Assembly: GCA_019057375.1 (NCBI GenBank)
Contig: DXJF01000070.1
Coordinates: 1 to 15,481, forward strand
Direction: 5' to 3'
DNA: 15,481 nt
Source of the DNA: Candidatus Heimdallarchaeota archaeon
GTDB taxonomy: Archaea > Asgardarchaeota > Heimdallarchaeia > Heimdallarchaeales > Heimdallarchaeaceae
Shown here: positions 1 through 14,930 of the stretch, piece after piece
Layout of the letters: every line of letters begins with the position of its first letter
Position numbering within the stretch: the stretch's first letter is position 1
Notes under the pieces: model-generated
The model's input: the letters and a program-made list of their open reading frames with translations, nothing else
Database searches by the model: none
Told to the model about the DNA's origin: nothing
Made by a program: the position numbers and the translations under genes

Positions 1-767
1 TCAGCATCTTCAACTACTCCTTTTATATCTTCTTGATCTTCAGGATAAAGTGATTCTAAAAGCTGAAACACCCAGTGAATCATAAAATTATATAGATAAG
101 AAGATTTTCTCAGTACTTTTCTCCACTCAAACCACTTTGCTATATTCTGAGAATGAACTGATTGCATTTTTTCTAAATCCTCTTCTGTTACTTCTCTAGT
201 TGAATATCTCAGTGGGTAAAAAGAAACAGGTTTGGCTCCTTTGAATAAGAAACTATCAAAATCCTTAATCAAAGTTCCAAAAATCAATTCAAAATCCATC
301 ATTGCAAATCTTGTGATAACTTTGGATTCTTTGTAATAATCAGCATAACTTGCCCCCTTCTTATAGTAAATTGATTTGAGAATTTTCGCATAAATTGGTA
401 GAAGGAGAGTTTTTCCTTCCTCATTTAATTCTTCAAATATTGCATCTTTGTTAGATAATTCTGCTATGTAATATTCTATCAGAAAAGCACAATAAGTAGA
501 TGTAGATAATTCAGGATGTGATAAATAAAATTCAATTGCCTTTGTAGTTTCTTTTGTATTCTTCTTAATCTTGCTTAAATCAATATCATCTGGTAAATCG
601 ATAGTTTTCTTCTGTCTATCTTTAGGAATTAGATATTTACCTCCTTTTTCGAAGACAAGAGCTTTTTTCTTTGTTAATAACCCGAATGAAACTTCTGATT
701 TCTGTAAAGTTCCTTTATATAAAACTACGTCCATTAAGATTCCTCGCTTAACTCTCTCTAAAGTCAT
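1..767 (-). CDS. Hypothetical protein, runs off the left edge (at least 255 aa, C-terminus missing); absent from the ORF track
   Basis: Manual translation from the ATG at 767 (cat at 765-767) gives MTLERVKRGILMDVVLYKGTLQKSEVSFG...LYPEDQEDIKGVVEDA with no stop to the window edge. Divergent from the 836 gene. No family recognised. Confidence 0.85.
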   Translation of the reverse strand, partial: MTLERVKRGILMDVVLYKGTLQKSEVSFGLLTKKKALVFEKGGKYLIPKDRQKKTIDLPDDIDLSKIKKNTKETTKAIEFYLSHPELSTSTYCAFLIEYYIAELSNKDAIFEELNEEGKTLLLPIYAKILKSIYYKKGASYADYYKESKVITRFAMMDFELIFGTLIKDFDSFLFKGAKPVSFYPLRYSTREVTEEDLEKMQSVHSQNIAKWFEWRKVLRKSSYLYNFMIHWVFQLLESLYPEDQEDIKGVVEDA

Positions 768-835
768 AGGCTAATAAATCTTTATTTTAGCGATATAGAA
801 AAAATTAAAGTTGAGCACATTTTATATCCATTAGA

Positions 836-1339
836 ATGAATAGAGAGAAAACACTTGAATTTCTGAAAGAAGAGCATGAAAGGTTGAATTCTGTCTTCAA
901 TTCTCTTCATAGGGAGGAACTTGTTCAGTACCATATTGTAAAGGCTTGGAATATAAAAGATATTCTTGCGCACTTAGCTGCGTGGAACAAAGAATTGATA
1001 AAATCAATTGATAGTCTTTTGGATAAAAAAGACATATGGTTTAGAACAAAAAACGAAGATGAGTTTAATAAAATTCAAGTTACTTTAAGAAAATCTAAAA
1101 GTGTAACAGAAATAATCGACGAATGGAAAAATTCATTTAGTCAACTCATTGAAAAAATTGAAGGATTATCCGAGGAAGAATGGAATTTCAGATCTGATTA
1201 TAAATGGAAAAGTGGAGATTTTGTTACTGTTAAATCATTCTTTGAATATAGAAAACGGGGATTGGGTCATGAGGGATGGCATGCCTTCCAAATAGAAGAT
1301 TATTTTGAAAGCGATAGATGCGCTTGTAGAGTATATTAG
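836..1339 (+). CDS. DinB-superfamily four-helix bundle protein (ClbS/DfsB, DUF1706-like)
   Basis: WNIKDILAHLAAWN motif (first His) and C-terminal GHEGWH His pair; 167 aa and helical, as is typical of DinB/ClbS-DfsB proteins. Confidence 0.8.
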   Translation: MNREKTLEFLKEEHERLNSVFNSLHREELVQYHIVKAWNIKDILAHLAAWNKELIKSIDSLLDKKDIWFRTKNEDEFNKIQVTLRKSKSVTEIIDEWKNSFSQLIEKIEGLSEEEWNFRSDYKWKSGDFVTVKSFFEYRKRGLGHEGWHAFQIEDYFESDRCACRVY

Positions 1340-1390
1340 ACATGTAGCATACTCAACGTTTAAATTTTGAAATTAGTGTGGATTACATCG

Positions 1391-2692
1391 ATGATTCTTG
1401 AAAGGTATTTATCAAAAAAAGGTCAATATTTAGAGAACAATGTTAATCTTTCAGCAGGCACTATAGCTTGGGGTGTAAAGGCTAAAAAAAGAGCAAAAGA
1501 GAGTTCAGACTTTATTAATGCTACAACTGGAACAGCAACTGAAGATGATGGAAGGTTGATGGTTTTACCAACTCTTTATGATGAACTTCGACAATTAACA
1601 GGAGATCAATTATTCGCTTATGCAAATATGAGAGGACTACATGCTTTTGTTCAAGCTTGGAAAAAAGATACTCTAGAGAGCTTTCCTTCTGATTTAAGAA
1701 AAAAAACTGAAAATCTTTCAACTCTTCCGGTAACTGCATGTGGTGGTTTAACTGGAGGATTGATGTTAGCTGGTCAAATTTTCTTTGACAAAGGTGACAC
1801 GTTATTAGCTCCAAATTCAAGATGGGGAAACGTAGATAATGTTTTTTTCAAGAATCAGCAGCTAAAAGAAACACCATATAAGCTAATTGACCAAGAAGGT
1901 AATCTTTCTCTCTCAAATTTGAGTGATAAGTTAATCGAATGCCAAAAAACAGAGAAAAAAATAGGGGTTTATCTTAATTTTCCTAACAATCCATCTGGAA
2001 TTAGTCCTACAATAAGCCAAATTAAGGAATTACAAGAGACACTAGAAAAGATTACAATTCCAGCTGTTCTATTTCTTGATGATGCGTATGAAAATTATTG
2101 TTTCGAAGATGATGTAGTTGACCATTCTATTTTCCCTTATTTAGTTGGACTAAATGATAATGTAGTCACAGTAAAAATCGATGGAGCTTCAAAAAGATAC
2201 TGTGCTTATGGTGCAAGATTGGGTACCATGACAGTAGGTTTTGGATCAGAAAAGGATGAAGAGGAAAAAGCTAAAATCAGAGAATTAATGGCTAAAGCGG
2301 CAAGAACTAACACCTCAAGCGCACCTAGAGGTATTCAAGAAGCACTAACCAATGTCCTAACAGATGAAAGAAAGAATAAAAAAATCAAGAAAGAGAAATC
2401 AAGAAATCTGAATATTCTTTCTAGAAGATACAAATTGATCAAGAAACTCGGAGAAGAAATAACTAATAAGGTACTTAAACCTGTAAAATTCAACTCAGGA
2501 TTCTTTGGTTATTATCTAATAAAAAATCAGCAGACAGCTACAGAGATATCAACAAAGCTTTTAGAAAAAGGATTAGGAACAGTTCCTTTTGTAAATACAT
2601 CAAATGACTTAAACGGAATAAGAGTTGCATTTTGTTCCATTAGTGAAGAGAATATTCCTAAAGCATTTGATATTCTATATTCGACTTCTTGA
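1391..2692 (+). CDS. PLP-dependent class I/II aminotransferase (PRK08637-like subfamily); substrate unknown
   Basis: Motifs INATTG, NFPNNPSG, DDAY and KIDGASKRYCAYGARLG (PLP lysine). Start moved from the track's TTG 1367 to ATG 1391 because the TATA-like GTTTAAAT (1358-1365) lies 25 nt upstream of it. Confidence 0.88.
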   Translation: MILERYLSKKGQYLENNVNLSAGTIAWGVKAKKRAKESSDFINATTGTATEDDGRLMVLPTLYDELRQLTGDQLFAYANMRGLHAFVQAWKKDTLESFPSDLRKKTENLSTLPVTACGGLTGGLMLAGQIFFDKGDTLLAPNSRWGNVDNVFFKNQQLKETPYKLIDQEGNLSLSNLSDKLIECQKTEKKIGVYLNFPNNPSGISPTISQIKELQETLEKITIPAVLFLDDAYENYCFEDDVVDHSIFPYLVGLNDNVVTVKIDGASKRYCAYGARLGTMTVGFGSEKDEEEKAKIRELMAKAARTNTSSAPRGIQEALTNVLTDERKNKKIKKEKSRNLNILSRRYKLIKKLGEEITNKVLKPVKFNSGFFGYYLIKNQQTATEISTKLLEKGLGTVPFVNTSNDLNGIRVAFCSISEENIPKAFDILYSTS

Positions 2693-2732
2693 TATCTATG
2701 AAACAGAAAAAGCTAAAGAGAAGAAGTTGTAT

Positions 2733-3923
2733 CTACTTCTTCATCGTTTTGAATTTCTTAACAGTTATTGGTAGGGCAATAAGGATTAGAACAGCAAAAC
2801 TAAGTAAAACATATGGTGCACTAGTTTTTGTAGTCGGATAGCCAAATACTCTATAATATGTTTCAAGAACTGCTGCTGATGCATTTACCATTCCATACCC
2901 AAAATAATCATCCTTACCTTCATCACCTAAATCATCAGCGGTTTCATGGAGAATCTCTCTTATCTCACCAACAGACATAGTATAGTTAATGGATCTCATC
3001 AAAGCTATAACCCCTACAACCTGTGGGCATGCAAAAGATGTACCCCATCCAGTTGTATAACCATCAGGAGGATAAGTGCTTCTGATATTATTGACTCCTT
3101 GATCACCAACGGGAGCAACAAGTTCAGTCCATGGACCAAAATTACTGAAATCTGCTACATCTCCCCAGTAGCTGGTTGCACCAACAGAGATTACATTATC
3201 ATACCCTCCGGGAAATGATTGATAGTATCTTCCACCTCCAGATGACAAGGGCGTATTTCCTGTAACAGAAACTACAGGAATGTTTTGATCTATAGCATAT
3301 GTGATGTCATCATGGTATAACTCACTTTCGGAATAATAATGAAGACTTAAGTTGATGATGTCTGCACCGTTTTCAGCAGCATAACGTATGGCGTCACCGA
3401 ATCCGTCTAAAGTTGTTCCTGCATAATTTGCTGAATCAAGAACTCTGATATCCATAATAGTCACATTAGGAGCAACACCTGCTACACCAATTCCATCAAG
3501 TGGAGCGGCTATGATACCTGTAATGAAAGTAGCATGCCAATGAACGGGATCAGCAGCTTCTGGGCCAGGAATGCTGTCGTTGGAAACAAAATCCCATCCT
3601 GCAACGTCATCAATGTATCCATTACTGTCGTCATCTATCCCATTATCTGGGATTTCATCTGTATTATTCCAAGATTTTCCTTCCAATTGTGGATGTGAAA
3701 AGTCTATTCCAGAATCGATTATTGCTACAATTATATTTTCGTTTCCATATGTTTTCTCCCAAGCCCCATAAATGCTTATTTGAGGGAGATGCCAACCTAC
3801 ATCATTTACTTTTGTACTAGGAGGTAAAGTTATATCAGGTTTACTCACTGCAGAGTTGTAATTTAATGAAAATAAAACAATTAACAATAATGTAGCTATA
3901 ACATGTTTGAATGCTTTATTCAT
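2733..3923 (-). CDS. Secreted, C-terminally membrane-anchored S8 (subtilisin-like) serine protease
   Basis: Catalytic triad motifs VAIID70SGID, H130ATFITG and GTS296FACP; oxyanion TGN223; acidic insert NTDEIPDNGIDDDSNGYIDD; N-terminal hydrophobic signal; C-terminal TM followed by KKFKTMKK. Confidence 0.95.
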   Translation of the reverse strand: MNKAFKHVIATLLLIVLFSLNYNSAVSKPDITLPPSTKVNDVGWHLPQISIYGAWEKTYGNENIIVAIIDSGIDFSHPQLEGKSWNNTDEIPDNGIDDDSNGYIDDVAGWDFVSNDSIPGPEAADPVHWHATFITGIIAAPLDGIGVAGVAPNVTIMDIRVLDSANYAGTTLDGFGDAIRYAAENGADIINLSLHYYSESELYHDDITYAIDQNIPVVSVTGNTPLSSGGGRYYQSFPGGYDNVISVGATSYWGDVADFSNFGPWTELVAPVGDQGVNNIRSTYPPDGYTTGWGTSFACPQVVGVIALMRSINYTMSVGEIREILHETADDLGDEGKDDYFGYGMVNASAAVLETYYRVFGYPTTKTSAPYVLLSFAVLILIALPITVKKFKTMKK

Positions 3924-3945
3924 AATAATTAGGTGACTAAAGTAA

Positions 3946-3954
3946 CTTATAAAA
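3946..3954 (-). promoter_or_regulatory. Archaeal TATA box (TTTTATAAG) for the S8 protease gene
   Basis: 22 nt upstream of ATG 3923. Confidence 0.65.
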
Positions 3955-4080
3955 TTATTTACTTCAATATAATATCTAATTTGTTGTAATCAAATTATTG
4001 AAAAATAGATTTTTGTTTGATTATTTTTAAGTATCCAAGATATCTTTTTCTCCTAATCACTTAGCTGTAAAAATATCATA

Positions 4081-4100
4081 AAAGAAAGAAAAAAGAGGAA
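4081..4100 (-). terminator. Oligo-T/pyrimidine tract terminator after plsY
   Basis: Minus strand reads TTCCTCTTTTTTTCTTTCTTT shortly after the TAG stop. Confidence 0.55.
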
Positions 4101-4108
4101 GGAGTCAG

Positions 4109-4855
4109 CTATTTTAAAGCTTCATCTGCTTTTCCTTTGAAAATCTTCCAGAGTTTCATCTTTTTAGCTTCACCAGTCTTAATCTTTCTGAAGTTTTCTC
4201 CTTGTCTTGAAAGAACCACTAGAGTTATAGCTATCATTGTAGCAAATGCTACCCAACCAAAAATTCCAGTTACAGCTGGATTATTCAAATCCGCAATACC
4301 AGTTGCTGGTGAAACCCAAGTCCATATATGTGCCCCCCAAAAGATGAAGATTACACCCATAACGACAAAACTGACTAAATATGTTATTGCACTATACATG
4401 ATGGCTGATCCCAAGATAAAATAAAGTACCAACCATACTGGTAAAAAGATTGGATTAAAGAATATCATAGAACCCAAGGTAGATGCAACACCTTTTCCTC
4501 CTGGACCCCAAAGCCATATGGGCCAATTATGACCTAGAATTGCTGCTGGACCAGCAAAAGCGACCACCCAGAGATCACTATTACTAAATGCGAACGAGAT
4601 GTATACAGTTAACCACATAGCAAAGAAACCCTTTAACATATCAAGTATAGCTTCAATTATTCCAACAGTATAAGCTAGCCCTTTTGATTTTCCTTCTGCT
4701 TGAAATGCTCGAATGACGTTTCTTCCACCAACATTTTTCGAACCAACAGTTCGAATATCTATTCTTAACCATAGCTTTACTATAATCCAAGCAATTGGAA
4801 TTGAACCTAAAAGATAACCTATTGCTGCTGCCCAGAGAACATCTATTGTTATCAT
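4109..4855 (-). CDS. plsY: Glycerol-3-phosphate acyltransferase, PlsY family
   Basis: YLLGSIP, IDIRTVGSKNVGGRN, DMLKG, GHNWPIW-GGKGVA and R-x-x-EN-x5-GE-x-K motifs in a polytopic membrane protein of 248 aa. Confidence 0.9.
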   Translation of the reverse strand: MITIDVLWAAAIGYLLGSIPIAWIIVKLWLRIDIRTVGSKNVGGRNVIRAFQAEGKSKGLAYTVGIIEAILDMLKGFFAMWLTVYISFAFSNSDLWVVAFAGPAAILGHNWPIWLWGPGGKGVASTLGSMIFFNPIFLPVWLVLYFILGSAIMYSAITYLVSFVVMGVIFIFWGAHIWTWVSPATGIADLNNPAVTGIFGWVAFATMIAITLVVLSRQGENFRKIKTGEAKKMKLWKIFKGKADEALK

Positions 4856-4876
4856 GTCTGAATCTCTTTAAAGCTT

Positions 4877-4885
4877 CTTTAAAAA
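4877..4885 (-). promoter_or_regulatory. Archaeal TATA box (TTTTTAAAG) for plsY
   Basis: 21 nt upstream of ATG 4855, preceded by purine-rich CGAACAAAG (BRE-like). Confidence 0.6.
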
Positions 4886-5037
4886 CTTTGTTCGAATAAA
4901 TAAATGCATTGAGACATAGAAGAATTAGAGCCTTAAAACATTTTTTGGATTGATTCTAGAAAGGAAAAATTTCTTCAAATATTAGTAACTAACCACTAGT
5001 TTGAAATAGACTTTATATGAATGATTTGTGAACTATA

Positions 5038-6222
5038 ATGATTAGAGAGTTCAAAAATTCAGAAGATATAAAACAAGCTGTCAAGTTAGCCGCATTATGC
5101 TTCCATGAACCAACCAAAGAAATGGAAAAATTCTTTGCAGGAATCAAAGAGTTAAAAATGTTAGGAGCTTTTGAAGAGAATACTCTTCTAGCAGCTGCTG
5201 GTTCATATAAATTTCAAATGTTCATAAGAGAAAAACTGTTTGACTGTGCAGGAATGGCTTATGTTATGACTCATCCAGTTCATAGAAGAAAAGGTTATGT
5301 TAAGGACTTAATGAATAAACTGATTATAGATAGTAGAAATCAAGGTTATCCTGTTGCAGCTCTTTGGCCTTTTGATCATAGTTTTTATCAGAAATTTGGA
5401 TTTGAAAATGCTGAAAAAGCAATCCATTACAATTTCAAACCAATTGATATAAAATCAAGTTTTAAGCTTGAAGATAATATCAAAATAAGTGAAGTAATAG
5501 ATAAGAAGGATTTCGCACCTCTGATTCAAGTGGCTGAAAATGCACTAAATAAATATACAAGAGTCATCGGAGATGTTGATGCCTGGTTACTCAGAGGAGA
5601 ACTACAGGGTTATTTCAAAATATATCTTATGGAGCGAGACGAAAAACCTATCGCTTATCTTTCCTTAAAATTCAGAAAAGCAAAAGAATGGGAACACAAC
5701 ATGCAAATAATGGATTTTGCTTATGTAGATATAAATGCAAAACATAATCTTCTTGCTTTCTTGAGAAATTTTGAAGCAGACATAAATCAAATAACACTAA
5801 CTCTCCCAGTTCAAGAGGAAATTGAAAGTTATTTAGATGGTGTAAAGGACACTCACAAATTTAGTCAATGGCCAGCAATGTTTAGAATTTTAGATGTTAA
5901 GAAGTCTTTCGAACAATTAGACTATCACTCTGTATTAAATGAAAAACTATATTTTCAAATCAAGGACAATGTTCTTCCCAAAAATAGTGGTATTTGGAAT
6001 TTACAAATAAATAACGGTAAATGTATAGCATCGAAAATCGAAGGGCAAAATATTGCCAAGGAGAAAATTCTAGAACTATCAATAAATCAGCTATCTCAAA
6101 TTCTTATTGGCTATTCTAAAGTTGAAAATCTTCTAGAGCATACTGGAATAAGAATTCCTGAAGAATGGAAACATAAATATTTGTTCCCAGTAATGCCATG
6201 CTCATTCATGCTGTGGTTTTAA
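5038..6222 (+). CDS. Eis-like GNAT N-acetyltransferase (tandem GNAT plus SCP2-like C-terminal domain)
   Basis: VMTHPVHRRKGY acetyl-CoA motif, ALWPFDHSFYQKFGFE, C-terminal D-x2-LPKNSG-W and LSINQLSQILIGY; 394 aa matches the Eis architecture. Confidence 0.9.
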   Translation: MIREFKNSEDIKQAVKLAALCFHEPTKEMEKFFAGIKELKMLGAFEENTLLAAAGSYKFQMFIREKLFDCAGMAYVMTHPVHRRKGYVKDLMNKLIIDSRNQGYPVAALWPFDHSFYQKFGFENAEKAIHYNFKPIDIKSSFKLEDNIKISEVIDKKDFAPLIQVAENALNKYTRVIGDVDAWLLRGELQGYFKIYLMERDEKPIAYLSLKFRKAKEWEHNMQIMDFAYVDINAKHNLLAFLRNFEADINQITLTLPVQEEIESYLDGVKDTHKFSQWPAMFRILDVKKSFEQLDYHSVLNEKLYFQIKDNVLPKNSGIWNLQINNGKCIASKIEGQNIAKEKILELSINQLSQILIGYSKVENLLEHTGIRIPEEWKHKYLFPVMPCSFMLWF

Positions 6223-6233
6223 ATGAGTGGAAT

Positions 6234-6243
6234 AATATATAAG
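6234..6243 (+). promoter_or_regulatory. Archaeal TATA box (AATATATAAG) for the 145-aa gene
   Basis: 22 nt upstream of ATG 6266. Confidence 0.6.
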
Positions 6244-6265
6244 TAAGAAAATCTTATTCTATTTC

Positions 6266-6703
6266 ATGAGTGAACACGAAGTTGAAGAATTAGAACAAAT
6301 ACTCATTCCTTTTGCTTTAAGCAGATTTGATCTTGACAACTATAAAACTAATTTTCCAATGGGAAAAATGGCTATGAATATGGCCAAACGCATGATGGGG
6401 AACTGGATTAACGATTATGTTACTTGGCTAGTTAGAGCTTTTACTCGCTGCTTAGTCAATGTAACTGATGGAATTTATCTAAAAGATCTTGCAGCTGTGG
6501 TATTAGCAGAAGCAAGTTTCATGCAGGGAATCGGTCCTTGGGGTCCTTTCCAAATGCAAATGGGTCAACCAGGTGGTGGCGATAGATCTGCAATGGAACC
6601 CCAAGTCGAAACTGAGGCTCATGCTTGGTTACTTCATCTGCAAGAAATAGGCAAACTACCAGGTGTCTATGAACGCTTTACTGGAAAGTATACCTTGAAC
6701 TAA
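6266..6703 (+). CDS. Hypothetical 145-aa Met/Gly-rich soluble protein
   Basis: Clean ATG ORF with TATA AATATATAAG (6234-6243) 22 nt upstream. Its C-terminal peptide recurs in diverged form at 8413-8478, which supports real coding constraint. Confidence 0.85.
   Translation: MSEHEVEELEQILIPFALSRFDLDNYKTNFPMGKMAMNMAKRMMGNWINDYVTWLVRAFTRCLVNVTDGIYLKDLAAVVLAEASFMQGIGPWGPFQMQMGQPGGGDRSAMEPQVETEAHAWLLHLQEIGKLPGVYERFTGKYTLN
6638..6703 (+). repeat. Copy 1 of a diverged 66-bp direct repeat (copy 2 at 8413..8478)
   Basis: Codon-by-codon alignment gives 47/66 nt identity; the longest exact runs are 7 bp (aaatagg, taccagg). Confidence 0.85.
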
Positions 6704-6716
6704 ATATTTCTTGTCT

Positions 6717-8339
6717 TTATTTGTTTTTTTCTTTTTTCTCTTGTTGTTTTAAGGGACTGCCTAAGTCTTCTAATCTTTCTTTAAAATTGAATTTATCATA
6801 AGTAACTGTTCTTTCCACTACCTGATTATCGACACGAGAAGCAATTTTGTCTAGTTTATCAAAACTAGTTCGTTTTCTTTGTATTCTCTCTTTCTCTTTC
6901 CTCATTTCTTCAGCTCTAGCATCAAAATTAAGTTTATATTTTATGTAATCTCGAAGATTCATATTTGCTCTTTCTAGCTTTCTATTTATGACAACATAAA
7001 TTGCAATAATTTCCAATGTAACAATAATTGAAAGGTTCAACAGTCTATAGAAATTGTCATCAATTTGAATAAATTGATGTAATATTGTAGTGAAAATAAA
7101 CGATACAAGGATTATTATTCCTGGGAAGAACAGAAATAGATAGCTTATATCGCTTACAAGAGAAGTGACTGCATAACCTTTTCCAAAGAAGAAAAGGACA
7201 ATATACTTAATTATTAGATAAGTTGCAATTATTGCAATTATGAGCCACGAAACGATAATGAGGGTTTTATTACTAGAATCAAAGGAATAAATAACAAATG
7301 TAACAAGAAAAATTGTTACCACCAAATCTTGTAAAATTCTTTCTCTCCTAATTGACAGAACTCTTCTTACTGAACCTCTAGGTTCCTCCTCTAAACTAAT
7401 AATCTCGGAATATTCACTTGTTGCGGTTCTTTTTCGAGTGAATAAGTTAACTTGGCAGTGGATGCAATGTTCTAAGAACATATCAGTTCTTTCACCACAT
7501 ACAGGACAATTAATTAGATTAAATTTCACTTCTATTTCTTTCTGCTCCTTTTGTTTTTCTTCTGTTGCCACAGATTTAGTCTTCTGTTGAAGAAGAGAAA
7601 TAAAAGTTCTAGATTGGATATGTTCCTTAGTAGTAGGAATTTCGGTTCTTAATCTTCTATCTTTAACTAAGAATGCTACTTTAGCTTCATAAGGTAAGAG
7701 AGGTTTAGTTAGAACAAACTTTCGAATTCTTGAGATATCAACTATTAGTTTTATTCCTACAACAATCATCAATCCTGATTCAACGAATCCATTGAATGTG
7801 ACCAAGAAAGCATATAACGCTTCATCAGCAACATAATTTGCTATAGCACTAAAAACTGCGATTATAATTGAAAAAAACGCATAAATTGAATAAAAAGCAC
7901 TTCCTATTTTTAGAGAAAAAATTCTATCGATTTTCCTTAAAAGCTTATTTAACAAATAAAAACCAAAAATCCTACCTAGGATGACTGTATATCCAGTTAA
8001 TCCCGCTAAGAATGGCCATCCAAGAAATACTATGTCCGAGAGTACTGCTACTGAAAACGCCATCATCCACAAAGCAGTTTGTTTCCCTATCTTTGTAATA
8101 TGATCAACAAAATAGATATCGGTAATAGAATATATTCCATATGCAATAGGTAATAAACTAATTGCGGTAAATGCAAAAAGGATGTATTCAATCAGTTGAT
8201 AATAGTCTGAATTATTGAGATATAAATTATGCGCAATATTTAGAAAACTGACAATGATAAATAAAATGCATCCTGAAAAAATAAATACTGAATGAGTTTT
8301 TATAGGCTGATCTGCTTTTTCTTGCTCTTTCATTAGCAA
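6717..8339 (-). CDS. Hypothetical polytopic membrane protein with an internal C4 zinc ribbon (start TTG 8339 or ATG 8333)
   Basis: About 6 hydrophobic segments in the first ~200 aa, a charged linker, CPVC-x10-CIHC (nt 7455-7508), about 4 further TM segments and a highly charged C-terminal tail. Confidence 0.85.
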   Translation of the reverse strand: MLMKEQEKADQPIKTHSVFIFSGCILFIIVSFLNIAHNLYLNNSDYYQLIEYILFAFTAISLLPIAYGIYSITDIYFVDHITKIGKQTALWMMAFSVAVLSDIVFLGWPFLAGLTGYTVILGRIFGFYLLNKLLRKIDRIFSLKIGSAFYSIYAFFSIIIAVFSAIANYVADEALYAFLVTFNGFVESGLMIVVGIKLIVDISRIRKFVLTKPLLPYEAKVAFLVKDRRLRTEIPTTKEHIQSRTFISLLQQKTKSVATEEKQKEQKEIEVKFNLINCPVCGERTDMFLEHCIHCQVNLFTRKRTATSEYSEIISLEEEPRGSVRRVLSIRRERILQDLVVTIFLVTFVIYSFDSSNKTLIIVSWLIIAIIATYLIIKYIVLFFFGKGYAVTSLVSDISYLFLFFPGIIILVSFIFTTILHQFIQIDDNFYRLLNLSIIVTLEIIAIYVVINRKLERANMNLRDYIKYKLNFDARAEEMRKEKERIQRKRTSFDKLDKIASRVDNQVVERTVTYDKFNFKERLEDLGSPLKQQEKKEKNK

Positions 8340-8412
8340 ACATCCAGATGTTCTTATTTCGTTAAGGATAATAAATAAATATGCTACTTATACACACTTA
8401 TAAGCTGTTTGA

Positions 8413-8478
8413 CTGGAAAAAATAGGTAAATTACCAGGCGTGTATGAGAGATTTACAGGGAGATATTTTATTAATTAA
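8413..8478 (+). pseudogene. Orphan 3' gene fragment paralogous to the end of the 6266..6703 gene
   Basis: Translates LEKIGKLPGVYERFTGRYFIN* versus LQEIGKLPGVYERFTGKYTLN* (16/21 aa identical, 47/66 nt, same TAA). In-frame stops TGA 8410-8412 and TAA 8401-8403 lie just upstream and there is no in-frame ATG. Confidence 0.85.
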
Positions 8479-8499
8479 ACTAGAGAGATAACTCTAAGA

Positions 8500-9726
8500 T
8501 TAAAACCTCATTTTTTTTCTTCTATTTAGATGTAGTAAGATTACCAACAAGAAAATCATTGTTACTAGATAATATAATTTTGTAGTAGAAGTTCTTTCTA
8601 GATTTTCATTCAGGGGATAAAGGTCATTGTTTTCTGCTTTTCCATTGATATGATATGTACTATTTTGATCCAAATCAGACCAGTAATTGCCTTCTTTTGT
8701 TTTAGTATCATACCAGTAGTTATCTCTTCCTGAATCGCAAGCTTGTGATGTTCCTTCTATATGATTATGAATGAAGTAGTTGTGATGAACAGTATTGAAT
8801 CTCGAGTTAACATCTAATGCAACCCCATATTCAGTATTGTTTCTAATTAGATTGTAGGTAAACTTACTTCTGTGCGTATCCCAAGATCTAATTCCACACC
8901 ATCCATTGAATTCAATTATATTGTTTGTAATTTCTGAATCAACTATACCATATATCATTATTCCATCTCTTTCATTGAATCCAATTGTATTGTTATCTAT
9001 CACTACTTCAGCACCGCCTGTATCCAATCCTTCGATATTGTTAGTAATGATATTATTTTTTATGATAGTATTTCTTCCTCCAACCATTAAACCCCAGAAA
9101 TTGAAAGAACATAAGTTGTTAGTAAAAGTGTTATTTTCACCCCCCCCAAAAATTCCACTATCACTTTGATTCAAACAGATATTATTATCAACTAACGTAT
9201 TATTGGTATATTCCAAATAAATACCAAAATCGCCATATTCATCCAAATGACTAACAGACTCATATAAACAGAGATTATTTGTTATTGAAGCACCATTAGT
9301 TCTTCTTAAATCTAAACCTCTACTAGATAATTGGTGTGAATAAATTGTATTGAAACTATTATTGGTTATAGTTACAGTATAATCTGCCACATCACGAACA
9401 AAGATACATGTCCATAAGGCTTTAATTGAACAGTTTCTAATAACAAAGTGTTTTGTAGTATCCTCAACATGTATTCCTACACCATAATCAAATGAGTCAA
9501 TTACATAGTTTTCAATTAAATATGGATCTAAAGCTGTTCCTGAACCTGAAAAACTATAGTTAATGAAATCTTGATCACTTGCAATATTAATAAACACTCC
9601 TGATTCAGAAATTTCCATATCACCATAAAGAAAATTAGAATTTGCTGATTCAACAGGAAAAATGAATGAAAAGAGCAAAATAAAAGAAAGGCTAATTACT
9701 GTAAATTTCTTCAAACTCCCCATCAT
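8500..9726 (-). CDS. Cell-surface right-handed parallel beta-helix protein (NosD/CASH-like repeats), C-terminally anchored
   Basis: Signal peptide; FSGSGTALDPYLIENY cap; Asn-rich I-x-NN-x repeats; GNYWSD...DLYPL end motif; C-terminal TM followed by RRKKMRF. Confidence 0.9.
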   Translation of the reverse strand: MMGSLKKFTVISLSFILLFSFIFPVESANSNFLYGDMEISESGVFINIASDQDFINYSFSGSGTALDPYLIENYVIDSFDYGVGIHVEDTTKHFVIRNCSIKALWTCIFVRDVADYTVTITNNSFNTIYSHQLSSRGLDLRRTNGASITNNLCLYESVSHLDEYGDFGIYLEYTNNTLVDNNICLNQSDSGIFGGGENNTFTNNLCSFNFWGLMVGGRNTIIKNNIITNNIEGLDTGGAEVVIDNNTIGFNERDGIMIYGIVDSEITNNIIEFNGWCGIRSWDTHRSKFTYNLIRNNTEYGVALDVNSRFNTVHHNYFIHNHIEGTSQACDSGRDNYWYDTKTKEGNYWSDLDQNSTYHINGKAENNDLYPLNENLERTSTTKLYYLVTMIFLLVILLHLNRRKKMRF

Positions 9727-9757
9727 GCTCTTTCAACTAGACAATAATCCTTGAAGA

Positions 9758-9765
9758 CTTATAAG
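9758..9765 (-). promoter_or_regulatory. Archaeal TATA box (CTTATAAG) for the beta-helix gene
   Basis: 31 nt upstream of ATG 9726, preceded by an A-rich BRE-like tract. Confidence 0.55.
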
Positions 9766-9774
9766 ATTTTTGGG

Positions 9775-9810
9775 AAAATAAAAAAACAAAATTAAAAGGA
9801 AAGAAAAAGT
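9775..9810 (-). terminator. Oligo-T terminator after the recombinase gene
   Basis: Minus strand reads ACTTTTTCTTTCCTTTTAATTTTGTTTTTTTATTTT immediately after TAA. Confidence 0.6.
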
Positions 9811-9813
9811 AGG

Positions 9814-10563
9814 TTAGCTATAGAAGTCGTCTTCATCGCTGACTTCTACATCTCCTTCTTTTATTATTGGTTCAACTTGATAAACGACTCTCCCCTTCCA
9901 GAAGTATTCACCAGTTCGATAAATAGGATTTTTTCTTAAATAGGCTAAAGTACTTCGTGGAATGTCATATTTATTGCTAATAGTAGACATAGTGACATTG
10001 TCTTCAAACATCTGGAAAATCTCAACCAATTTAGGTCGCATTTCTTCGTCAATTAACAGCTTACCATTTTCTATCTTGTAACCTATAGGAGGACGAGACA
10101 TTATTTTTTCATCTTGTATCCTTCTTTTGATTCCATACATTCTTTTCTGTCTGTATTTCTTTAGCTCCTCCTCTCCTAAAAGATCGTATATTCTTGTGAC
10201 AAGCATTTCATCAGATTCTTCAGTTGCTCGAATCTCTACTCCTTTGCTTCGTAAGAGCACAGAAGCATATCCTAACATATCTACTTCTCTAGAAATCCTG
10301 TCACGTGTTTGTACCCAGACTTCTTTGATTGGATCTTCAGGTCTCTGCGTATTATGAATTTGGATAAATTCTAACATCTTCTTAAAACCAGGTCTTTCTT
10401 GAACATGACTGTCCCCAGAAACATCTTCATCAACGAATGTTTCAAGAACGTGTCTATATCCAACAGTGTTGATTTTCTTATCTATTACATCGTACTGTGT
10501 GTCTCTGCCAGATTCTTGATCTGCAGTACTAACCCTTACATAAGTAACTACATTAACATGCAT
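9814..10563 (-). CDS. Serine recombinase (resolvase catalytic domain plus compact recombinase DNA-binding domain)
   Basis: Y8-V-R-V-S12 catalytic motif, VSGD, RPGF and DRISR; then SRPPIGY, EIFQMF, KNPIY-x-G and EPII, as in the PF07508 recombinase domain. Confidence 0.92.
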   Translation of the reverse strand: MHVNVVTYVRVSTADQESGRDTQYDVIDKKINTVGYRHVLETFVDEDVSGDSHVQERPGFKKMLEFIQIHNTQRPEDPIKEVWVQTRDRISREVDMLGYASVLLRSKGVEIRATEESDEMLVTRIYDLLGEEELKKYRQKRMYGIKRRIQDEKIMSRPPIGYKIENGKLLIDEEMRPKLVEIFQMFEDNVTMSTISNKYDIPRSTLAYLRKNPIYRTGEYFWKGRVVYQVEPIIKEGDVEVSDEDDFYS

Positions 10564-10586
10564 AGTTTCTAAAAAGGTGGGTTCTT

Positions 10587-10594
10587 CTTATAAC
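10587..10594 (-). promoter_or_regulatory. Archaeal TATA box (GTTATAAG) for the recombinase gene
   Basis: 23 nt upstream of ATG 10563. Confidence 0.6.
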
Positions 10595-10785
10595 ATGATA
10601 TTATCGACAAGATATCTGGAGATTGCATATTTTTGTAGAAAAAAAATTCCTTCCGATTTTACGCTTTTAAGCGATGTTATTTCTGTAAGAAGTTTATTTT
10701 TGAGTCTATTACAAAAATAGCTTTGCATACAAACCAAAAGTGTAACTGTAAAAACCATTAAAAAGAATTTATCTTGTTTCTTCTT

Positions 10786-11580
10786 ATGAAAATAGTTATA
10801 ACAGGTAGCTCAAGGGGTATAGGGTTTGCATTGGCTAAAAGATTTGCTGAATATGGAGATCAGATAATTATATCTTCAAGAAAACAAGAAGCTGTTGATA
10901 TTGCTGTAAATAATATAAAGAGTTTCAATCTTGAAACTGAGGTTCATGGAACTGTCTGTGATGTTACCAAAATTGAGGATGTTAAATCGCTTGTACAATT
11001 TAGTGATGAAAAGATATCTGGAATTGATGTTTGGATTAACAATGCTGGAATAAATGGATCCTTTTATGGTAAACTAACTGATTGGAAAAATGAAGTAATT
11101 GAACAGGTTATACAAACTAATTTAGTTGGAACATTAAATGGTTGTGCGGCAGCTATAGAATACATGATAAAACAAGGACACGGGAAAGTTTTCAATTTAG
11201 CTGGTATGGGATCGAACGGCATGGCTTCACCTAATTTAGCTGTATATGGAGCTACAAAAGCATCTATACCTCAACTAACAAAGTCATTATCACAGGAACT
11301 TAAAGATACCAATGTCATTATCAACCATATGAGCCCAGGAATAGTTATTACTGATTTAATATCAACAAATGTTCCTAAAGAAGCGGTTTCGATTTTCAAT
11401 ATTTTAGCTGAAAAGCCTGATAAGGTTGCGAAGTACTTGGCTAGAAAAATGAGGAAAATCAACAAAAGTAACAAAAACATAAATTTCGCAAATTCAGTTA
11501 AAGTCTTTTGGAAATTTATGACTGCAAGTTTTAGAAAAAACAGATTCTTTGATCAAGAAGGGAATTTAATAGAAGAGTAG
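10786..11580 (+). CDS. Short-chain dehydrogenase/reductase, NOL/NYC1-like subfamily
   Basis: TGSSRGIG, NNAG and YGATK motifs, plus subfamily-like segments GMGSNG-x3-P-x2-AVYG, SPG-x-V-x-TDL, FNIL-x-E-x-P and RKNRFFDQEG. ATG 10786 is preferred to TTG 10774 (TATA-like CATTAAAAAG at 10756-10765). Confidence 0.9.
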   Translation: MKIVITGSSRGIGFALAKRFAEYGDQIIISSRKQEAVDIAVNNIKSFNLETEVHGTVCDVTKIEDVKSLVQFSDEKISGIDVWINNAGINGSFYGKLTDWKNEVIEQVIQTNLVGTLNGCAAAIEYMIKQGHGKVFNLAGMGSNGMASPNLAVYGATKASIPQLTKSLSQELKDTNVIINHMSPGIVITDLISTNVPKEAVSIFNILAEKPDKVAKYLARKMRKINKSNKNINFANSVKVFWKFMTASFRKNRFFDQEGNLIEE

Positions 11581-11603
11581 TAATACAGTTTTAACTTACT
11601 TTT

Positions 11604-13238
11604 TCACTTTTTTGTAAAAATAGATTTTAACTTCTTGAAGAATCTAATAATTACATTTTTTATAATTCTATATGAGTTAATTATACTTTGTTTGACATAT
11701 TTAAAGAAATCCTTGAAATCTTGCTTCAATTGCTTGTAGCTTGTTTTTTTGCCTATTTCCTTATAATATCCTCCTGGAATAAGAAGAGAAATAAACATTG
11801 TTAAGAGTAGCAGAAAGAATGGATGTAAAAATCGAATTTTTATCATAATAATCCAACTATAATAATATAATCCAAGTGTAAAAATCAGTATACTAAGAAT
11901 TTCCAACAAGTTTATTCCTACATTTCCAAATTTTCTCGAATTGCTATTTTCTTCCTTTGTTAGGATATCTTTGTTTTTTCTATTTCTGATATAATCTCTT
12001 AATTTTTCGATTAATGTATTCAATAAGACTATTGCTGAGAGTATAAAGAATGGTGTAAAGAATGCGTCATAATATTTGAATAAACCTCGTGAAATAAAAG
12101 TATGAGTAATCATGATTACCCAAGTAATATAAATAGTAAACATCTTATCATCATTGGCTAGTTTCTTTCCATTAAAATGACCTATAAAAAGTGAAAAACC
12201 ATAGAACAGAATAAATGGTATCATTGGTATGTTAATCCACACATAAAATTGTGCTAAACCTTCTGCTTCTCCATATAAAATAGAATGTGCAAGTGTTGTA
12301 CCATGCGCATTTCCTGCAGGGTCCAAAGTTGCATACCAGAGAGGTCTTCCAGCTGCAAGTATTCTTCCTATGTATAGGATAGGAGTTATGAATATCCACG
12401 GTATAGAGAAGAGAAGAGTAGATAATAAGAACGGTCGTAGAAATTTTTTAACAGCTGTTCTCAGATCATGTTCTTTCCATATCATTGAGAATATTGGGAT
12501 GATCAAAAATAACGACATTTGTTTGGTTAACCAAGCTAAAGTAAGAGAATATGCCGATAACTTATATTTCTTCTTCATAACTAACAGAAACCCAATTAAT
12601 GTGAAAAATGTCATCTGTGGTATATTTAGATAATAAGTGTCAACATAAAATAAATTGAAGGGCATGAAAATAAAAGCAAATGCACCTATTAATCCAAGCA
12701 CATGTTTGTAGATCTTTCTTTCCTTCGTAAAACTAAAATTTACAATTATAAGATAAACCATAATTGCTGATAAAGAATCGAAATTGATCGCTGTCCATTT
12801 AACTGATTCCTCCATCAAAATAGTTGAAGTCATACTTGGGTTGAATAACTGCACCAAGAGAGATGTAAAATACAAACCATAGATAAAAATAGGTCCATAT
12901 ACATAAAAATCAAGCCTGTCTGTATATCTTTTATATGGGTTCCATCCACCACGGAAAGCATCTAAATAGGCTTCATAGTAGTAATCCGCATCATTATAGT
13001 TTTCAAAATACCAATAAACTGTTCCATTTATTGGTTCACTCAAGGTATGAGTAAAAGCTGAACCAATATTACTAATTATCCATCCAGACAGCTCTAACTT
13101 TACAAGAATTGCTGAAACTAAGATAAGAATTGAGATAATAACTGTAACTATCAAGTTTGAAGTTATTTTGTTTTTCAAACCCCCTAGATAGGAATTTGCT
13201 TTCTTCTCTTTCTCTCTTAAATCAACCATGAATTTCAT
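11604..13238 (-). CDS. GT-C superfamily membrane glycosyltransferase (GT87/DUF2029-like)
   Basis: First external loop ND-x-DYYY...GWNPY...YVYGP, AWLTKQ motif and many TM helices. Start is uncertain (13259, 13238 or 13229); the minus-strand TATA GTTTAAAA at 13259-13266 favours 13238. Confidence 0.75.
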   Translation of the reverse strand: MKFMVDLREKEKKANSYLGGLKNKITSNLIVTVIISILILVSAILVKLELSGWIISNIGSAFTHTLSEPINGTVYWYFENYNDADYYYEAYLDAFRGGWNPYKRYTDRLDFYVYGPIFIYGLYFTSLLVQLFNPSMTSTILMEESVKWTAINFDSLSAIMVYLIIVNFSFTKERKIYKHVLGLIGAFAFIFMPFNLFYVDTYYLNIPQMTFFTLIGFLLVMKKKYKLSAYSLTLAWLTKQMSLFLIIPIFSMIWKEHDLRTAVKKFLRPFLLSTLLFSIPWIFITPILYIGRILAAGRPLWYATLDPAGNAHGTTLAHSILYGEAEGLAQFYVWINIPMIPFILFYGFSLFIGHFNGKKLANDDKMFTIYITWVIMITHTFISRGLFKYYDAFFTPFFILSAIVLLNTLIEKLRDYIRNRKNKDILTKEENSNSRKFGNVGINLLEILSILIFTLGLYYYSWIIMIKIRFLHPFFLLLLTMFISLLIPGGYYKEIGKKTSYKQLKQDFKDFFKYVKQSIINSYRIIKNVIIRFFKKLKSIFTKK

Positions 13239-13352
13239 TCTAAAAGACTGATGAACCATTTTAAACTTATTGAAGAATAGATGAACAATAATGGTAATTT
13301 TTGAAACTTCAACTCTTGAGAAAAACTTGACTACATTTTGAAAGAAGTCAAA

Positions 13353-13361
13353 TTTTATAAG
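13353..13361 (+). promoter_or_regulatory. Archaeal TATA box (TTTTATAAG) for the PAS gene
   Basis: 24 nt upstream of ATG 13386; identical 9-mer to the S8 promoter box. Confidence 0.65.
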
Positions 13362-13385
13362 CTCATTTAGTGATTCTGTACAAAT

Positions 13386-14276
13386 ATGACATCTAAGGGT
13401 TCAAACCAGGATGTTTCTAAAACTTCTGGAAAAGGGGATTATCTGTGGGTTCTTGATCAACTCCCCTTTGGTGTTTCAGTACAGACAATAGAACGAAAGA
13501 TATTATATGAAAATGAAACGGTAATAGATTTGGTGGGTTCCTACACTCAAAGACATTGCTTTAATAGATGGCATTATTTAGAAGGGGAAGGTAATGAACC
13601 TTGCTCAGATTGCCCAGCAACAATAGGATTTAAGGATAAAAAATCACACAAAGTCTTTCGTAAAACAAAAGATAGTAAGGGAGAAGATTTATTTCTTGAG
13701 ATTCAGTTTATTCCTGTTTTTAATAAAGAAAATGAAATTGATAAATTCATTGAAATAATTAGAGATGTTACTTTGATAGATAAGGCAAAAGTTCTAGCAT
13801 GCACTCCTGTTAAAGAAATCACAAAATCCGTTCAAAGTTCTATAGTTAAATTTGGGGATTTAGGTGGAGAGATTATCTCTACAGATAATCTTGATTTTGC
13901 TAAGAGTGAAAACTTAGAAGAAATCATAGTAAAACTAACAGTGTACATCTTTAGCGGGGTAATTCAGGGATTTGAAGAACAAGTTGGGTTGTTTGGACCC
14001 TTTCCTGTTTTAGATAAAACTGATTATCTTATGGAAACATATCTTTTCAGAATAAGAGATATTAATTCTAATGATCCTAGATTGAAAGGAATGCAACCAT
14101 GTATGATTTTAATCTTCTTCCCAAGAGAACACTATTTCATTTTTGAGAAAAGAAAAGCAATTGAAGATTTCATGAATAAAAAGATTAAGGAATGGGGTCA
14201 TTTACTAGCAATAAATGAGCAATCTCACGAGGAATTTTCTGAAGAATTAAAACAATTTCTTGAGCTTCAAATTTAG
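13386..14276 (+). CDS. PAS-domain protein (C-x14-C-x2-C-P motif) with a predicted C-terminal longin/uDENN-like domain
   Basis: PAS hallmarks LDQLPFGVSV...ILYEN and LEIQFIPVFNKENEIDKFIEIIRDVT. The C-terminal ~150 aa has a hydrophobic pattern consistent with beta-beta-alpha-beta-beta-beta-alpha-alpha (inference). Confidence 0.8.
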   Translation: MTSKGSNQDVSKTSGKGDYLWVLDQLPFGVSVQTIERKILYENETVIDLVGSYTQRHCFNRWHYLEGEGNEPCSDCPATIGFKDKKSHKVFRKTKDSKGEDLFLEIQFIPVFNKENEIDKFIEIIRDVTLIDKAKVLACTPVKEITKSVQSSIVKFGDLGGEIISTDNLDFAKSENLEEIIVKLTVYIFSGVIQGFEEQVGLFGPFPVLDKTDYLMETYLFRIRDINSNDPRLKGMQPCMILIFFPREHYFIFEKRKAIEDFMNKKIKEWGHLLAINEQSHEEFSEELKQFLELQI

Positions 14277-14314
14277 TTGAAGCACTTACTATTATAATAT
14301 TTGTTAATAAATTT

Positions 14315-14335
14315 GAAAAATAAAGAAAGAGAGAA
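14315..14335 (-). terminator. Pyrimidine/T tract terminator after ssb
   Basis: Minus strand reads TTCTCTCTTTCTTTATTTTTC downstream of the stop. Confidence 0.45.
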
Positions 14336-14351
14336 TTGTGTAGTTACTTTA

Positions 14352-14783: not shown

Positions 14784-14930
14784 TTTTTTTCACTTCAAAC
14801 TTGTTGTTATTGATTGCACAAAAATCTGTTTCGAATATTAACAAGCGGTCAGCCAAAGCGAGCTTGAAAATAGATATTTTGAGATTTTTTTGCTGGAATA
14901 CATCCGATTTCTTCAACTATAAAAATAGTA

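Follow-up and report, generated by a model that had tools for sequence, protein, structure and literature searches.

In the genome of Candidatus Heimdallarchaeota archaeon (GCA_019057375.1, labelled G000 here), a small conserved gene, p145, is followed by a membrane-protein gene on the opposite strand, memZn, and then by a second copy of its own 3' end. How does a protein-coding gene come to have the same tail on both sides of an unrelated gene? We addressed this question in the window, the 15,481-nucleotide stretch formed by positions 1-15,481 (forward strand) of contig DXJF01000070.1, and in its relatives. The genomes compared are MAGs, and the mapping evidence consists of assembled contigs. 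The features of the locus are collected in Table 1.

Table 1. Features of the p145-memZn locus in the window.
Feature	Position	Strand	Description
p145	6266..6703	+	Conserved 145-aa gene, from ORF and translation; left anchor of the variable island
Tail A	6638..6703	+	Translates to LQEIGKLPGVYERFTGKYTLN and a stop; closes the 145-aa ORF 6266-6703
Left junction	6700..6716		p145 stop region CTAAAT (6700-6705) overlapping a 13-nt spacer (6704-6716)
memZn (cargo)	6717..8339	-	540-aa polytopic membrane protein with a central CxxC...CxxC zinc ribbon
memZn promoter/5' region	8340..8412	-	Putative; TATA-like CTTATAAG at 8397-8404
Right junction	8411..8419		Putative 7-nt microhomology CTGCAAG between cargo upstream flank and p145 codons 125-127
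Tail B	8413..8478	+	Translates to LEKIGKLPGVYERFTGRYFIN and a stop; orphan copy of the p145 3' end
Beta-helix (NosD-like) gene	8500..9726	-	Pfam PF05048 and PF13229; older gene of the variable island
249-aa gene	9814..10563	-	Minimal large-serine-recombinase type; Pfam Resolvase 1e-15; right anchor of the island

The p145 tail is duplicated and synonymously recoded

Tails A and B lie on the same strand, 1775 bp apart, and differ at 19 of 63 nucleotides. The longest exact match between them in the window is 7 nt, the value given by the initial annotation. Within a 13-codon core, nine nucleotide differences fall in eight codons and all nine are synonymous. When nine random substitutions are placed in this core in a neutral simulation, the peptide remains intact in 0 of 200,000 runs; between the two tails dS is saturated. 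The claim that the tail was duplicated and recoded, with both copies diverging while they were coding, is thereby borne out. Searched with a profile of the p145 family C-terminus, the window yields tail B (E=3e-11) but no third copy.

The arrangement is not an assembly artefact, a doubt raised when it was first described. An independent Logan contig from the source sample matches positions 6173-8546 without a single difference. Three other studies supply contigs that span one junction apiece: the left at 6583-7007, 6609-6981 and 6670-7388, the right at 8020-8457 and 8150-8494. The same succession of tail A, cargo and tail B occurs in three further species-level genomes of the genus (G023, G014 and G018), making four in all.

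Tail A is the functional 3' end of p145, of the allele type ...GKY[T/S]LN-stop. Among G000, G023, G014 and G024 its variation is almost only synonymous; in G024, which lacks the insert, p145 closes with this same allele. The 25 homologues of p145 all come from Heimdallarchaeaceae-type MAGs, and the gene matches no family in Pfam, NCBIfam or PHROG. Its AF2 model (pLDDT 81) has four helices and a C-terminal beta-hairpin, and a fold search with this model gives no significant PDB match. Distant paralogues of p145 exist elsewhere in the genus.

A single gene with its promoter lies between the tails

The only ORF between the two tails is memZn, with a probable ATG start at 8333. It has no family match in Pfam, NCBIfam or PHROG, and for the function of both p145 and memZn there is no usable match in Pfam, NCBIfam, PHROGs, the ESM Atlas or the PDB fold search. 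At this site, the memZn orthologues of G023, G014 and G018 are 95, 90 and 91% identical, respectively. Four others, 77-79% identical at the amino-acid level (G021, G013, G020 and G025), lie at unrelated loci, in at least two other contexts. No p145 tail is found near these four; only the gene and its promoter are shared.

The upstream region of memZn aligns with those of the G021 and G013 orthologues up to ...GTT(T/A)GACTGCAAG, where homology ends, and the homology of the window to the off-site orthologues stops exactly at the tail B boundary. By these alignments, the cargo is one gene and about 80 bp of promoter, transferred together. The idea of a gene-sized cargo put in at the 3' end of p145 is supported. 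In the cargo, Pfam, NCBIfam and PHROG detect no recombinase or transposase, and no terminal inverted repeats or dyad symmetry were found at its ends.

Tail B is a displaced and decaying gene end

Tail B, of the allele type ...GRYFIN-stop, has neither a start codon nor p145 codons 1-124, and a TGA and a TAA stand in frame upstream of it. Its amino-acid changes are lineage-specific: V>E and R>I in G023; Y>H, E>V, R>Q and G>R in G014 and G018, where a 1-nt indel also shifts the frame. By these features, tail B is the displaced, non-functional old 3' end of p145, now a decaying pseudogene fragment, in keeping with the displaced tail that the initial annotation placed at the far junction. It would represent a truncated remnant of the recipient, evolving neutrally at an illegitimate joint.

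Outgroups indicate which tail was there before. In the 3' half of the tail, G007 differs from tail B at 5/36 and from tail A at 10/36, and in this half tail B is nearer than tail A to the tails of both G007 and G011. By the G007 counts, tail B was inherited vertically, and it is tail A that has the diverged allele.

Two relatives lack the insert

Two close relatives carry no insert, and in both of them a functional p145 gene is terminated, once by each tail type. In G016 the tail is chimeric: it follows the A consensus over its first 27 nt (to CCAGGT) and then the tail B of G023, including the unusual Glu codon. In G024 a pure A tail is joined to the sequence downstream of G014's tail B. An empty allele directly before the beta-helix gene had been predicted, and G016 possesses one, ending ...GRYFI-stop. 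The accompanying claim, that excision swaps the C-terminus of the host protein, is supported by G016; in G024 the C-terminus is unchanged, so that cargo loss can have either outcome.

The crossovers of G016 and G024 are at different positions, in different short identity blocks, as predicted by repeat-mediated deletion. The blocks shared by tails A and B measure 16 nt in G023 (GGTAAACTACCAGGTG) and 11-12 nt in G014 (12 nt for TCCTTGAACTAA). Recombination between the tails would have deleted the cargo at least once and probably twice, leaving the chimeric and the pure A allele.

In trees of three marker loci, G024 is placed among the occupied genomes at 3/3 loci and G016 at 2/3; V-ATPase subunit I has two paralogues, of which one set was used. 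The three loci give three topologies, which leaves the order of events uncertain, and we rely only on the nesting of G024 and, for the most part, of G016. This nesting makes secondary deletions more likely than an ancestral empty site; G016 may represent the empty allele of the ancestor. Excision and circle junctions are absent from the Logan contigs of four runs, which is uninformative either way, since contigs drop rare variants.

The same site holds a second, unrelated cargo

That other cargo may occupy this site in relatives, as suggested with the first description, is confirmed by a fifth genome, G022. Its unrelated 4.2-kb cargo is bracketed by an 85-bp tail duplication of 86% identity, and constitutes an independent case. 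The duplicated tail starts at codon ~118 in G022 versus ~125 in the memZn case (85 against 66 bp). The far end of the G022 cargo falls inside a truncated 'family Y' gene that is fused to the displaced tail. When G015 and G022 are compared, identity changes from 77% to 87.5%, and the change coincides precisely with the tail. The second tail of G022 lies in a 136-aa open frame, which we rejected as a second p145 paralogue because the N-terminal portion of the frame comes from a different gene family.

The insertion lies at the edge of a variable island

Downstream of tail B, the beta-helix gene occurs as two deeply diverged haplotypes (81% identity), each with a different tail type; tail B and the beta-helix gene form a single haplotype block. 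The beta-helix gene is missing from most metagenome loci, where p145 adjoins the 249-aa recombinase gene. As these two are directly convergent in most metagenome loci, everything between them is accessory.

The 249-aa protein has the catalytic YVRVSTADQ motif and weak N-terminal matches to XisF, CcrA and PHROG integrase and invertase families; a PDB sequence search gives no match. Unlike large serine recombinases, it has neither a zinc-ribbon nor a coiled-coil part. Throughout the family its gene retains synteny and 78-98% identity, also at loci where 20-120 bp separate it from p145. It is a conserved chromosomal gene, present also where there is no insert. Searching 20 loci in six frames with hmmsearch, we found one extra tail per occupied locus, no integron-like tail array, and no tail between the beta-helix and recombinase genes.

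Both junctions may carry microhomology

At the left junction, on a tentative reading, the spacer 6704-6716 resembles the 3' flank of the cargo orthologues. In G021 and G020, ...CTAAAT/TATAAAT is followed by CTGTTTG ahead of the stop codon; in G014 and G000, CTAAAT is followed by ATGTCTGTA or ATTTCTTGTCT. Tentatively, CTAAAT may have provided microhomology here.

At the right junction, the G021 flank reads GACTGCAAG followed by TCT, and p145 reads CAT CTGCAAG AAATAGG. The present junction is GACTGGAAAAAATAGG in G000 and GACTTGCAAAAATAGG in G014 and G018. The motif CTGCAAG is common to the p145 codons and the upstream flank of the G021 cargo, a flank read from a 78%-identical orthologue and not from the true donor. 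The match could be a coincidence, at a chance of ~1e-3 by composition.

Origin of the arrangement

We consider it probable (about 60%) that tail B was left by homology-facilitated illegitimate recombination, which added the memZn module at the p145 edge of the variable island. This was the second option of the initial annotation, and it fits best. The locus looks like the scar of ordinary recombination, anchored by homology and not site-specific, rather than like a self-mobile element. One boundary of the event lies inside continuous homology, with p145 as the anchor: in all six close genomes the p145 head keeps 93-95% identity as far as CCAGGT, beyond which the alleles are ~36% divergent, and the identity switch between G015 and G022 likewise falls at the tail.

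The event may be pictured as follows. DNA of a diverged relative, with p145 ending in an A-type tail and memZn after it, would have entered the recipient and paired with it through the conserved p145 sequence. The far end of the incoming DNA would then have been joined illegitimately at CTGCAAG, in codon 125 of the recipient p145, so that the recipient's last 21 codons, of the B type, stayed downstream. That the tails differ mostly synonymously would follow from their having been functional alleles of two lineages before they were brought together. In the sub-lineage of G014 and G018, a later homologous exchange would have swapped the right flank. In these two genomes tail B is a mosaic, B-like in its 5' part and A-like over its last 12-15 nt; this needs an extra exchange or conversion event and counts against our reading. 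A small sampling of 31 family genomes and 7 metagenome loci did not reveal the donor arrangement, an A-type p145 with memZn and no tail B.

An insertion by template switching is unlikely. Here synthesis would proceed to the p145 stop, switch at microhomology to memZn, copy it and return to codon 125, so that ~69 nt of one tail are duplicated during replication or break repair, one copy being replaced later by a diverged allele. The possible microhomology at both junctions (CTAAAT and CTGCAAG) would suit such a path, as would the minimal gene unit of the cargo, and later allelic exchange of the block of tail and beta-helix gene is evident in the species cluster. However, the 30% divergence with a purely synonymous core demands an additional exchange, and the two diverged tails of G022, with the 77%/87.5% switch, stay unexplained.

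Site-specific integration, the first option of the initial annotation, is quite improbable on the present evidence. It would bring a circular module of memZn and tail into an att site in the p145 tail, by a recombinase acting in trans, such as the conserved serine recombinase nearby, and the insert would be excisable. The geometry matches attL and attR with a replacement gene end, and the A-type 5' and B-type 3' parts of G016 are those to be expected of an unoccupied attB or of a precise excision product. A gene of the serine-recombinase type, its catalytic motif intact, lies 1.3 kb away, and the site was used twice, as seen in G022. Yet the cargo brings no recombinase, and the neighbouring gene, lacking the zinc-ribbon and coiled-coil parts, is syntenic in all species, with or without insert. 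Nor are the ends fixed: the duplications start at different codons, the crossovers of G016 and G024 differ, an identical att core is lacking at the two ends, and one end of the G022 cargo is within a truncated gene. Off-site memZn orthologues have no tail, each locus has one extra tail with none beside the older beta-helix gene, and dyad symmetry and inverted repeats are missing.

A wider version, in which p145 and the 249-aa serine recombinase, a conserved pair that is convergent throughout the family, form a chromosomal cassette-capture system with cassettes inserted in the p145 tail, is very unlikely. If true, each capture would push the earlier tail downstream, and the closest archaeal relatives of eukaryotes would have an integron-like serine-recombinase system.

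Least probable of all is a decayed tandem duplication, two full p145 copies having flanked memZn and the second having kept only its tail: the genus does have distant p145 paralogues and the second tail of G022 does lie in an open frame, but the upstream part of that frame is an unrelated gene family, no sampled genome has the two complete tandem copies named beforehand as grounds for abandoning an insertion, and the memZn promoter homology reaches the tail boundary and so leaves no room for a decayed gene body.

A transposon or insertion sequence with target-site duplication was rejected, there being no transposase, no inverted repeats, and copies 30% diverged with a synonymous-only core. Aloposons and the other described Heimdallarchaeum elements (PMC8813620), which have giant genes and integrate in tRNA genes, are unrelated.

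Significance and relation to known systems

The locus presents one process caught at several stages: the occupied site in four species, two deletion products, a swap of the right flank and a second cargo. It suggests that individual host genes travel from lineage to lineage, and from one chromosomal site to another, unaided by the machinery of mobile elements, a conserved gene end serving as homology anchor. Such events can alter the C-terminus of a conserved protein, as in G016. Gene gain and shuffling in Asgard archaea bear on models of eukaryote origin, and recombination routes in this group are almost unknown because few of its members are cultivated.

The event is of a known kind, newly seen in Asgard archaea; since the mechanism is well known in bacteria, this is an extension to a new lineage and not a new principle. 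Homology-facilitated illegitimate recombination is described in naturally transformable Acinetobacter, Streptococcus pneumoniae and Pseudomonas stutzeri (cited in PMC5361080 and PMC3240628). In those bacteria homology holds one end of the incoming DNA, and a microhomology of a few bases serves to attach the other, the course proposed here as well; the recipient gains foreign genes and keeps a truncated piece of its own sequence at the illegitimate joint. Unlike the bacterial cases, ours is an evolutionary scar only, in uncultivated Asgard archaea, and it is anchored in the conserved 3' portion of a gene for a small protein.

C-terminal displacement that leaves 'orphan' 3' ends is known from rhs, cdiA and the Vibrio cholerae T6SS effector loci, whose orphans keep a short conserved coding stretch and can recombine back onto the main gene (PMC5361080 and references therein). 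Those loci too receive a new 3' module while the old 3' end persists downstream as an orphan, but their variable part is a toxin tip with its immunity gene, whereas in p145 it is the best conserved motif of the protein that is duplicated. They also differ in that our cargo, memZn, encodes an unrelated membrane protein and lies on the opposite strand, and in that each locus here has a single orphan.

Among integrative elements, those integrating in tRNA genes bring a replacement for the 3' end of their target gene, and so does SCCmec, which uses the CcrAB serine recombinases at the 3' end of rlmH. There, as here, a direct repeat of the gene's 3' end brackets the insert, the gene remains intact, and loss of the insert may alter or keep the C-terminus. 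In contrast to such elements, the p145 insert brings no recombinase of its own and shows no identical core; neither its ends nor its crossover point are fixed, and the cargo is a single gene.

Finally, variable gene islands, such as bacterial surface-polysaccharide loci, are exchanged via homologous recombination in their conserved flanks. They resemble the p145 locus in three respects: a variable block lies between two conserved anchors, identity changes abruptly at the edges of these anchors, and close species have in common haplotypes that are deeply diverged. The island described here differs from them in being small (0-5 genes) and archaeal, with one of its anchors a recombinase-like gene.

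Two tails of p145 and their divergence

The window is a complete, low-GC (31%) 15.5-kb contig of a MAG. Its gene p145, whose homologues carry Heimdallarchaeaceae or Heimdallarchaeota annotations, is followed by a second copy of its own 3' end (tail B), which has no start codon and is preceded by in-frame stops. The p145 model (pLDDT 81) consists of four helices and a C-terminal β-hairpin made by the tail; a PDB fold search with this model gave no significant match. The membrane protein gene enclosed by the tails, memZn, encodes a CxxC...CxxC zinc ribbon flanked by two blocks of transmembrane helices and matched no known family in Pfam, NCBIfam or PHROG.

Features of the p145 locus in the window
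Feature	Position	Strand	Description
p145	6266-6703	+	145-aa protein, C-terminus LQEIGKLPGVYERFTGKYTLN*
Tail A	6638-6703	+	p145's own 3' end
memZn	6717-8339	-	540 aa; sole ORF between the tails
Tail B	8413-8478	+	1775 bp downstream of tail A; reads LEKIGKLPGVYERFTGRYFIN*
β-helix gene	8500-9726	-	NosD-like
Recombinase-type gene	9814-10563	-	249 aa; serine-recombinase catalytic domain

The tails differ at 19 of 63 bases. Their 13-codon core holds nine differences in eight codons, none of which changes the peptide; nine random substitutions in the core kept the peptide in 0 of 200,000 simulations, and dS is saturated. The initial annotation had proposed a duplicated, synonymously recoded tail whose copies diverged while both were coding, and both points are borne out. 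A profile of the p145 family C-terminus picks up tail B (E=3e-11) and, in the window, no copy besides A and B. An assembly artefact is ruled out by assembled contigs, rather than reads: one contig assembled independently from the source sample covers both junctions with 0 differences, and contigs from three other studies each bridge a single junction.

Among the relatives, all of them MAGs, the two tails evolve differently. Tail A varies almost exclusively synonymously among the genome of the window (G000) and the family genomes G023, G014 and G024. The changes in tail B are V>E and R>I in G023, and Y>H, E>V, R>Q and G>R with a single-base indel in G014 and G018. Judged by these changes, tail B is a pseudogene and tail A is under selection. 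In the 3' half of the tail, 5 of 36 bases separate B from the outgroup G007, a level that agrees with the ~85% identity of the gene body, against 10 of 36 for A. Being nearer to G007, B is the vertically inherited end of p145, and A a diverged allele.

An island between two conserved anchors

p145 was found in 25 of the 31 genomes of the family, and the flanking DNA was compared at 20 loci. G023, G014 and G018 are occupied as in the window: p145 with tail A, memZn, tail B, β-helix gene, recombinase-type gene. The β-helix gene directly follows p145 in the close relatives G016 and G024 and in the more distant G015. p145 and the recombinase-type gene converge directly, across a gap of 20-120 bp, in G007 and five metagenome contigs. 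Because relatives have layouts without them, the β-helix gene, memZn and other inserts are accessory content; the locus, as these layouts indicate, is a small island of accessory genes between two conserved anchors, p145 and the recombinase-type gene. The latter is of a minimal large-serine-recombinase type: the catalytic motif is intact, and coiled coil and zinc ribbon are absent. Throughout the family it lies convergent to p145, often 20-120 bp away (loci L036, L064-L068, L042), at 78-98% identity; this conservation, above that of its neighbours, suggests a domesticated host gene.

The sequence after tail B, including the β-helix gene, exists in two forms: type I in G000, G023 and G016, with a related form in G015 and G022, and type II in G014, G018 and G024. 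Between the two forms, identity is ~81% in the β-helix gene, and the spacer cannot be aligned. All six genomes have p145 bodies that are 93-95% identical, and the haplotype switches inside the tail. Tail B of G014 and G018 is itself mosaic, with 51 B-like nt and 12-15 final A-like nt running into type II sequence, which calls for a later exchange of the right flank. By these switches, the tail has repeatedly been the start of homologous exchange of island content.

The β-helix gene is the fastest-evolving gene at the locus (81-92% nucleotide identity in species with rpoB 95-97% identical; orthologues in L032-L035 and L060), and its two deep forms are common to several species. G024 (L034) has two tandem β-helix genes with proteins only ~46% identical and a common 262-nt 3' end at 87% identity (4801-5062 and 6145-6406), a second case in the island of neighbouring genes with a common conserved end.

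A second, independent cargo at the same site

The initial annotation asked whether other cargo occupies the site in relatives, and G022 is such a case: an unrelated 4.2-kb insert (ORFs of 184 aa, 537 aa, S8-peptidase-like and partly multi-copy within G022, and 236 aa) follows p145. Part of the peptidase-like gene (L038 6491-7435) is repeated at 73-87% identity on contigs C7, C13, C1, C9 and C14, twice at contig ends, which suggests a multi-copy gene family or repeat.

The insert is followed by a second copy of p145's last 85 bp (86% identity) and the β-helix gene. This tail lies within a 136-aa open frame (L038 9220-9630) whose upstream part, in frame with the displaced tail and fused to it, comes from another, multi-copy gene family. 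Alignment to other members of this family (G014:C64; C132, C72 and C65 of G000) ends where the tail starts, so that the far end of the cargo cuts through a gene. Compared with its insert-free counterpart G015, G022 shows 77% identity across 4.6 kb to the left and 87.5% across 2.3 kb to the right; the change falls on the first base of the tail duplication, which begins near codon 118 in G022 and near codon 125 in the window.

Origin and junctions of memZn

memZn belongs to a large paralogous family, with 4-7 paralogues per genome throughout the family (in G000 on contigs C104, C44 and C115). True orthologues (77-79% aa identity) occur in G021, G013, G020 and G025. Their loci are unrelated to p145, represent at least two contexts and have no p145 tail nearby. 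The orthologue of the window's copy is found in at least three genomic contexts within one genus and has thus moved repeatedly. In G014 (L033, about 5294) it lies in two frames (aa 1-391 and 391-540), a frameshift or real split; many family members are half-size, ~250 aa corresponding to residues 312-528.

Upstream regions of the orthologues align with the window through the promoter, up to ...GTT(T/A)GACTGCAAG, and homology ends where tail B starts. As p145 codons 125-127 read CAT-CTGCAAG-AAATAGG, we infer that the right junction lies within a 7-nt microhomology, seen through 78%-identical orthologues rather than the true donor. On the left, the p145 and memZn stop codons are only 13 nt apart; CTAAAT of the p145 stop region recurs 3' of the orthologues in G021 and G020, a possible but weak second microhomology. 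No recombinase, transposase or terminal inverted repeats were found in the cargo, which by its sequence comprises the gene and its promoter alone. A donor arrangement, p145 with an A-type tail followed by memZn and lacking tail B, was not found among the 31 family genomes and seven metagenome loci.

Insert-free alleles and probable loss of the insert

The empty allele sought by the initial annotation occurs in G016, where p145 ends ...GRYFI* directly before the β-helix gene and is followed by the sequence that lies downstream of tail B in the window. Over its first 27 nt, to CCAGGT, the G016 tail equals the A consensus and is identical to G014 tail A; beyond, it tracks G023 tail B, including a Glu codon absent from every other homologue. 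Precisely at this switch point, the two G023 tails have an identical 16-nt block, GGTAAACTACCAGGTG. In G024, a pure A tail is joined to the sequence downstream of tail B in G014 and G018, and both G014 tails have TCCTTGAACTAA at their extreme ends. The two alleles are what direct-repeat recombination in an occupied chromosome would be expected to produce, with two different crossovers. That losing the cargo can swap the C-terminus of the host protein, as had been predicted, is seen in the chimeric A/B tail of G016.

Rooted trees of three markers conflict with each other, indicating that the species recombine: rpoB gives G000, then G023, then G016, then G014 with (G018, G024); secY gives G000, then G024, then (G016, G023); V-ATPase subunit I gives G016, then G000, then G024, then all others. 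Each of the three trees nests G024 among occupied genomes, and two of them do so for G016. Secondary loss, at least in G024, is the simpler reading; the order of events rests on these conflicting trees.

Mechanism of insertion

The initial interpretation is supported in part: of the two routes it put forward, homology-facilitated illegitimate recombination fits the locus better than a site-specific element does. Donor DNA would have paired with the recipient through conserved p145 sequence, and an illegitimate join would have placed its non-homologous far end some tens of bases short of the end of the recipient p145, leaving the recipient's own tail as a remnant. This reading fits because the cargo consists of genes only, the junctions lie at microhomology or within another gene, the duplicated tails start differently in the two events, the two deletions differ in crossover point, the tails come from diverged functional alleles and identity switches sharply at the tail.

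Less likely is insertion by a replicative template switch with later replacement of one allele. A site-specific element is unlikely, because no recombinase travels with the cargo, no locus has more than one orphan tail, and the neighbouring recombinase-like gene, missing the C-terminal regions that large serine recombinases have, is a conserved resident that insert-free loci have as well. A decayed tandem paralogue is supported by no sampled genome.

The p145/recombinase pairing kept around a variable island is the one lead by which the locus could prove to be more than a scar of a known type. Homology-facilitated illegitimate recombination is a known process in transformable bacteria and is a proposed source of the orphan 3' ends at rhs, cdiA and T6SS effector loci (PMC5361080; PMC3240628). 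The p145 locus would be a clear natural example of such a recombination scar, from a lineage in which events of this type had not been documented before.
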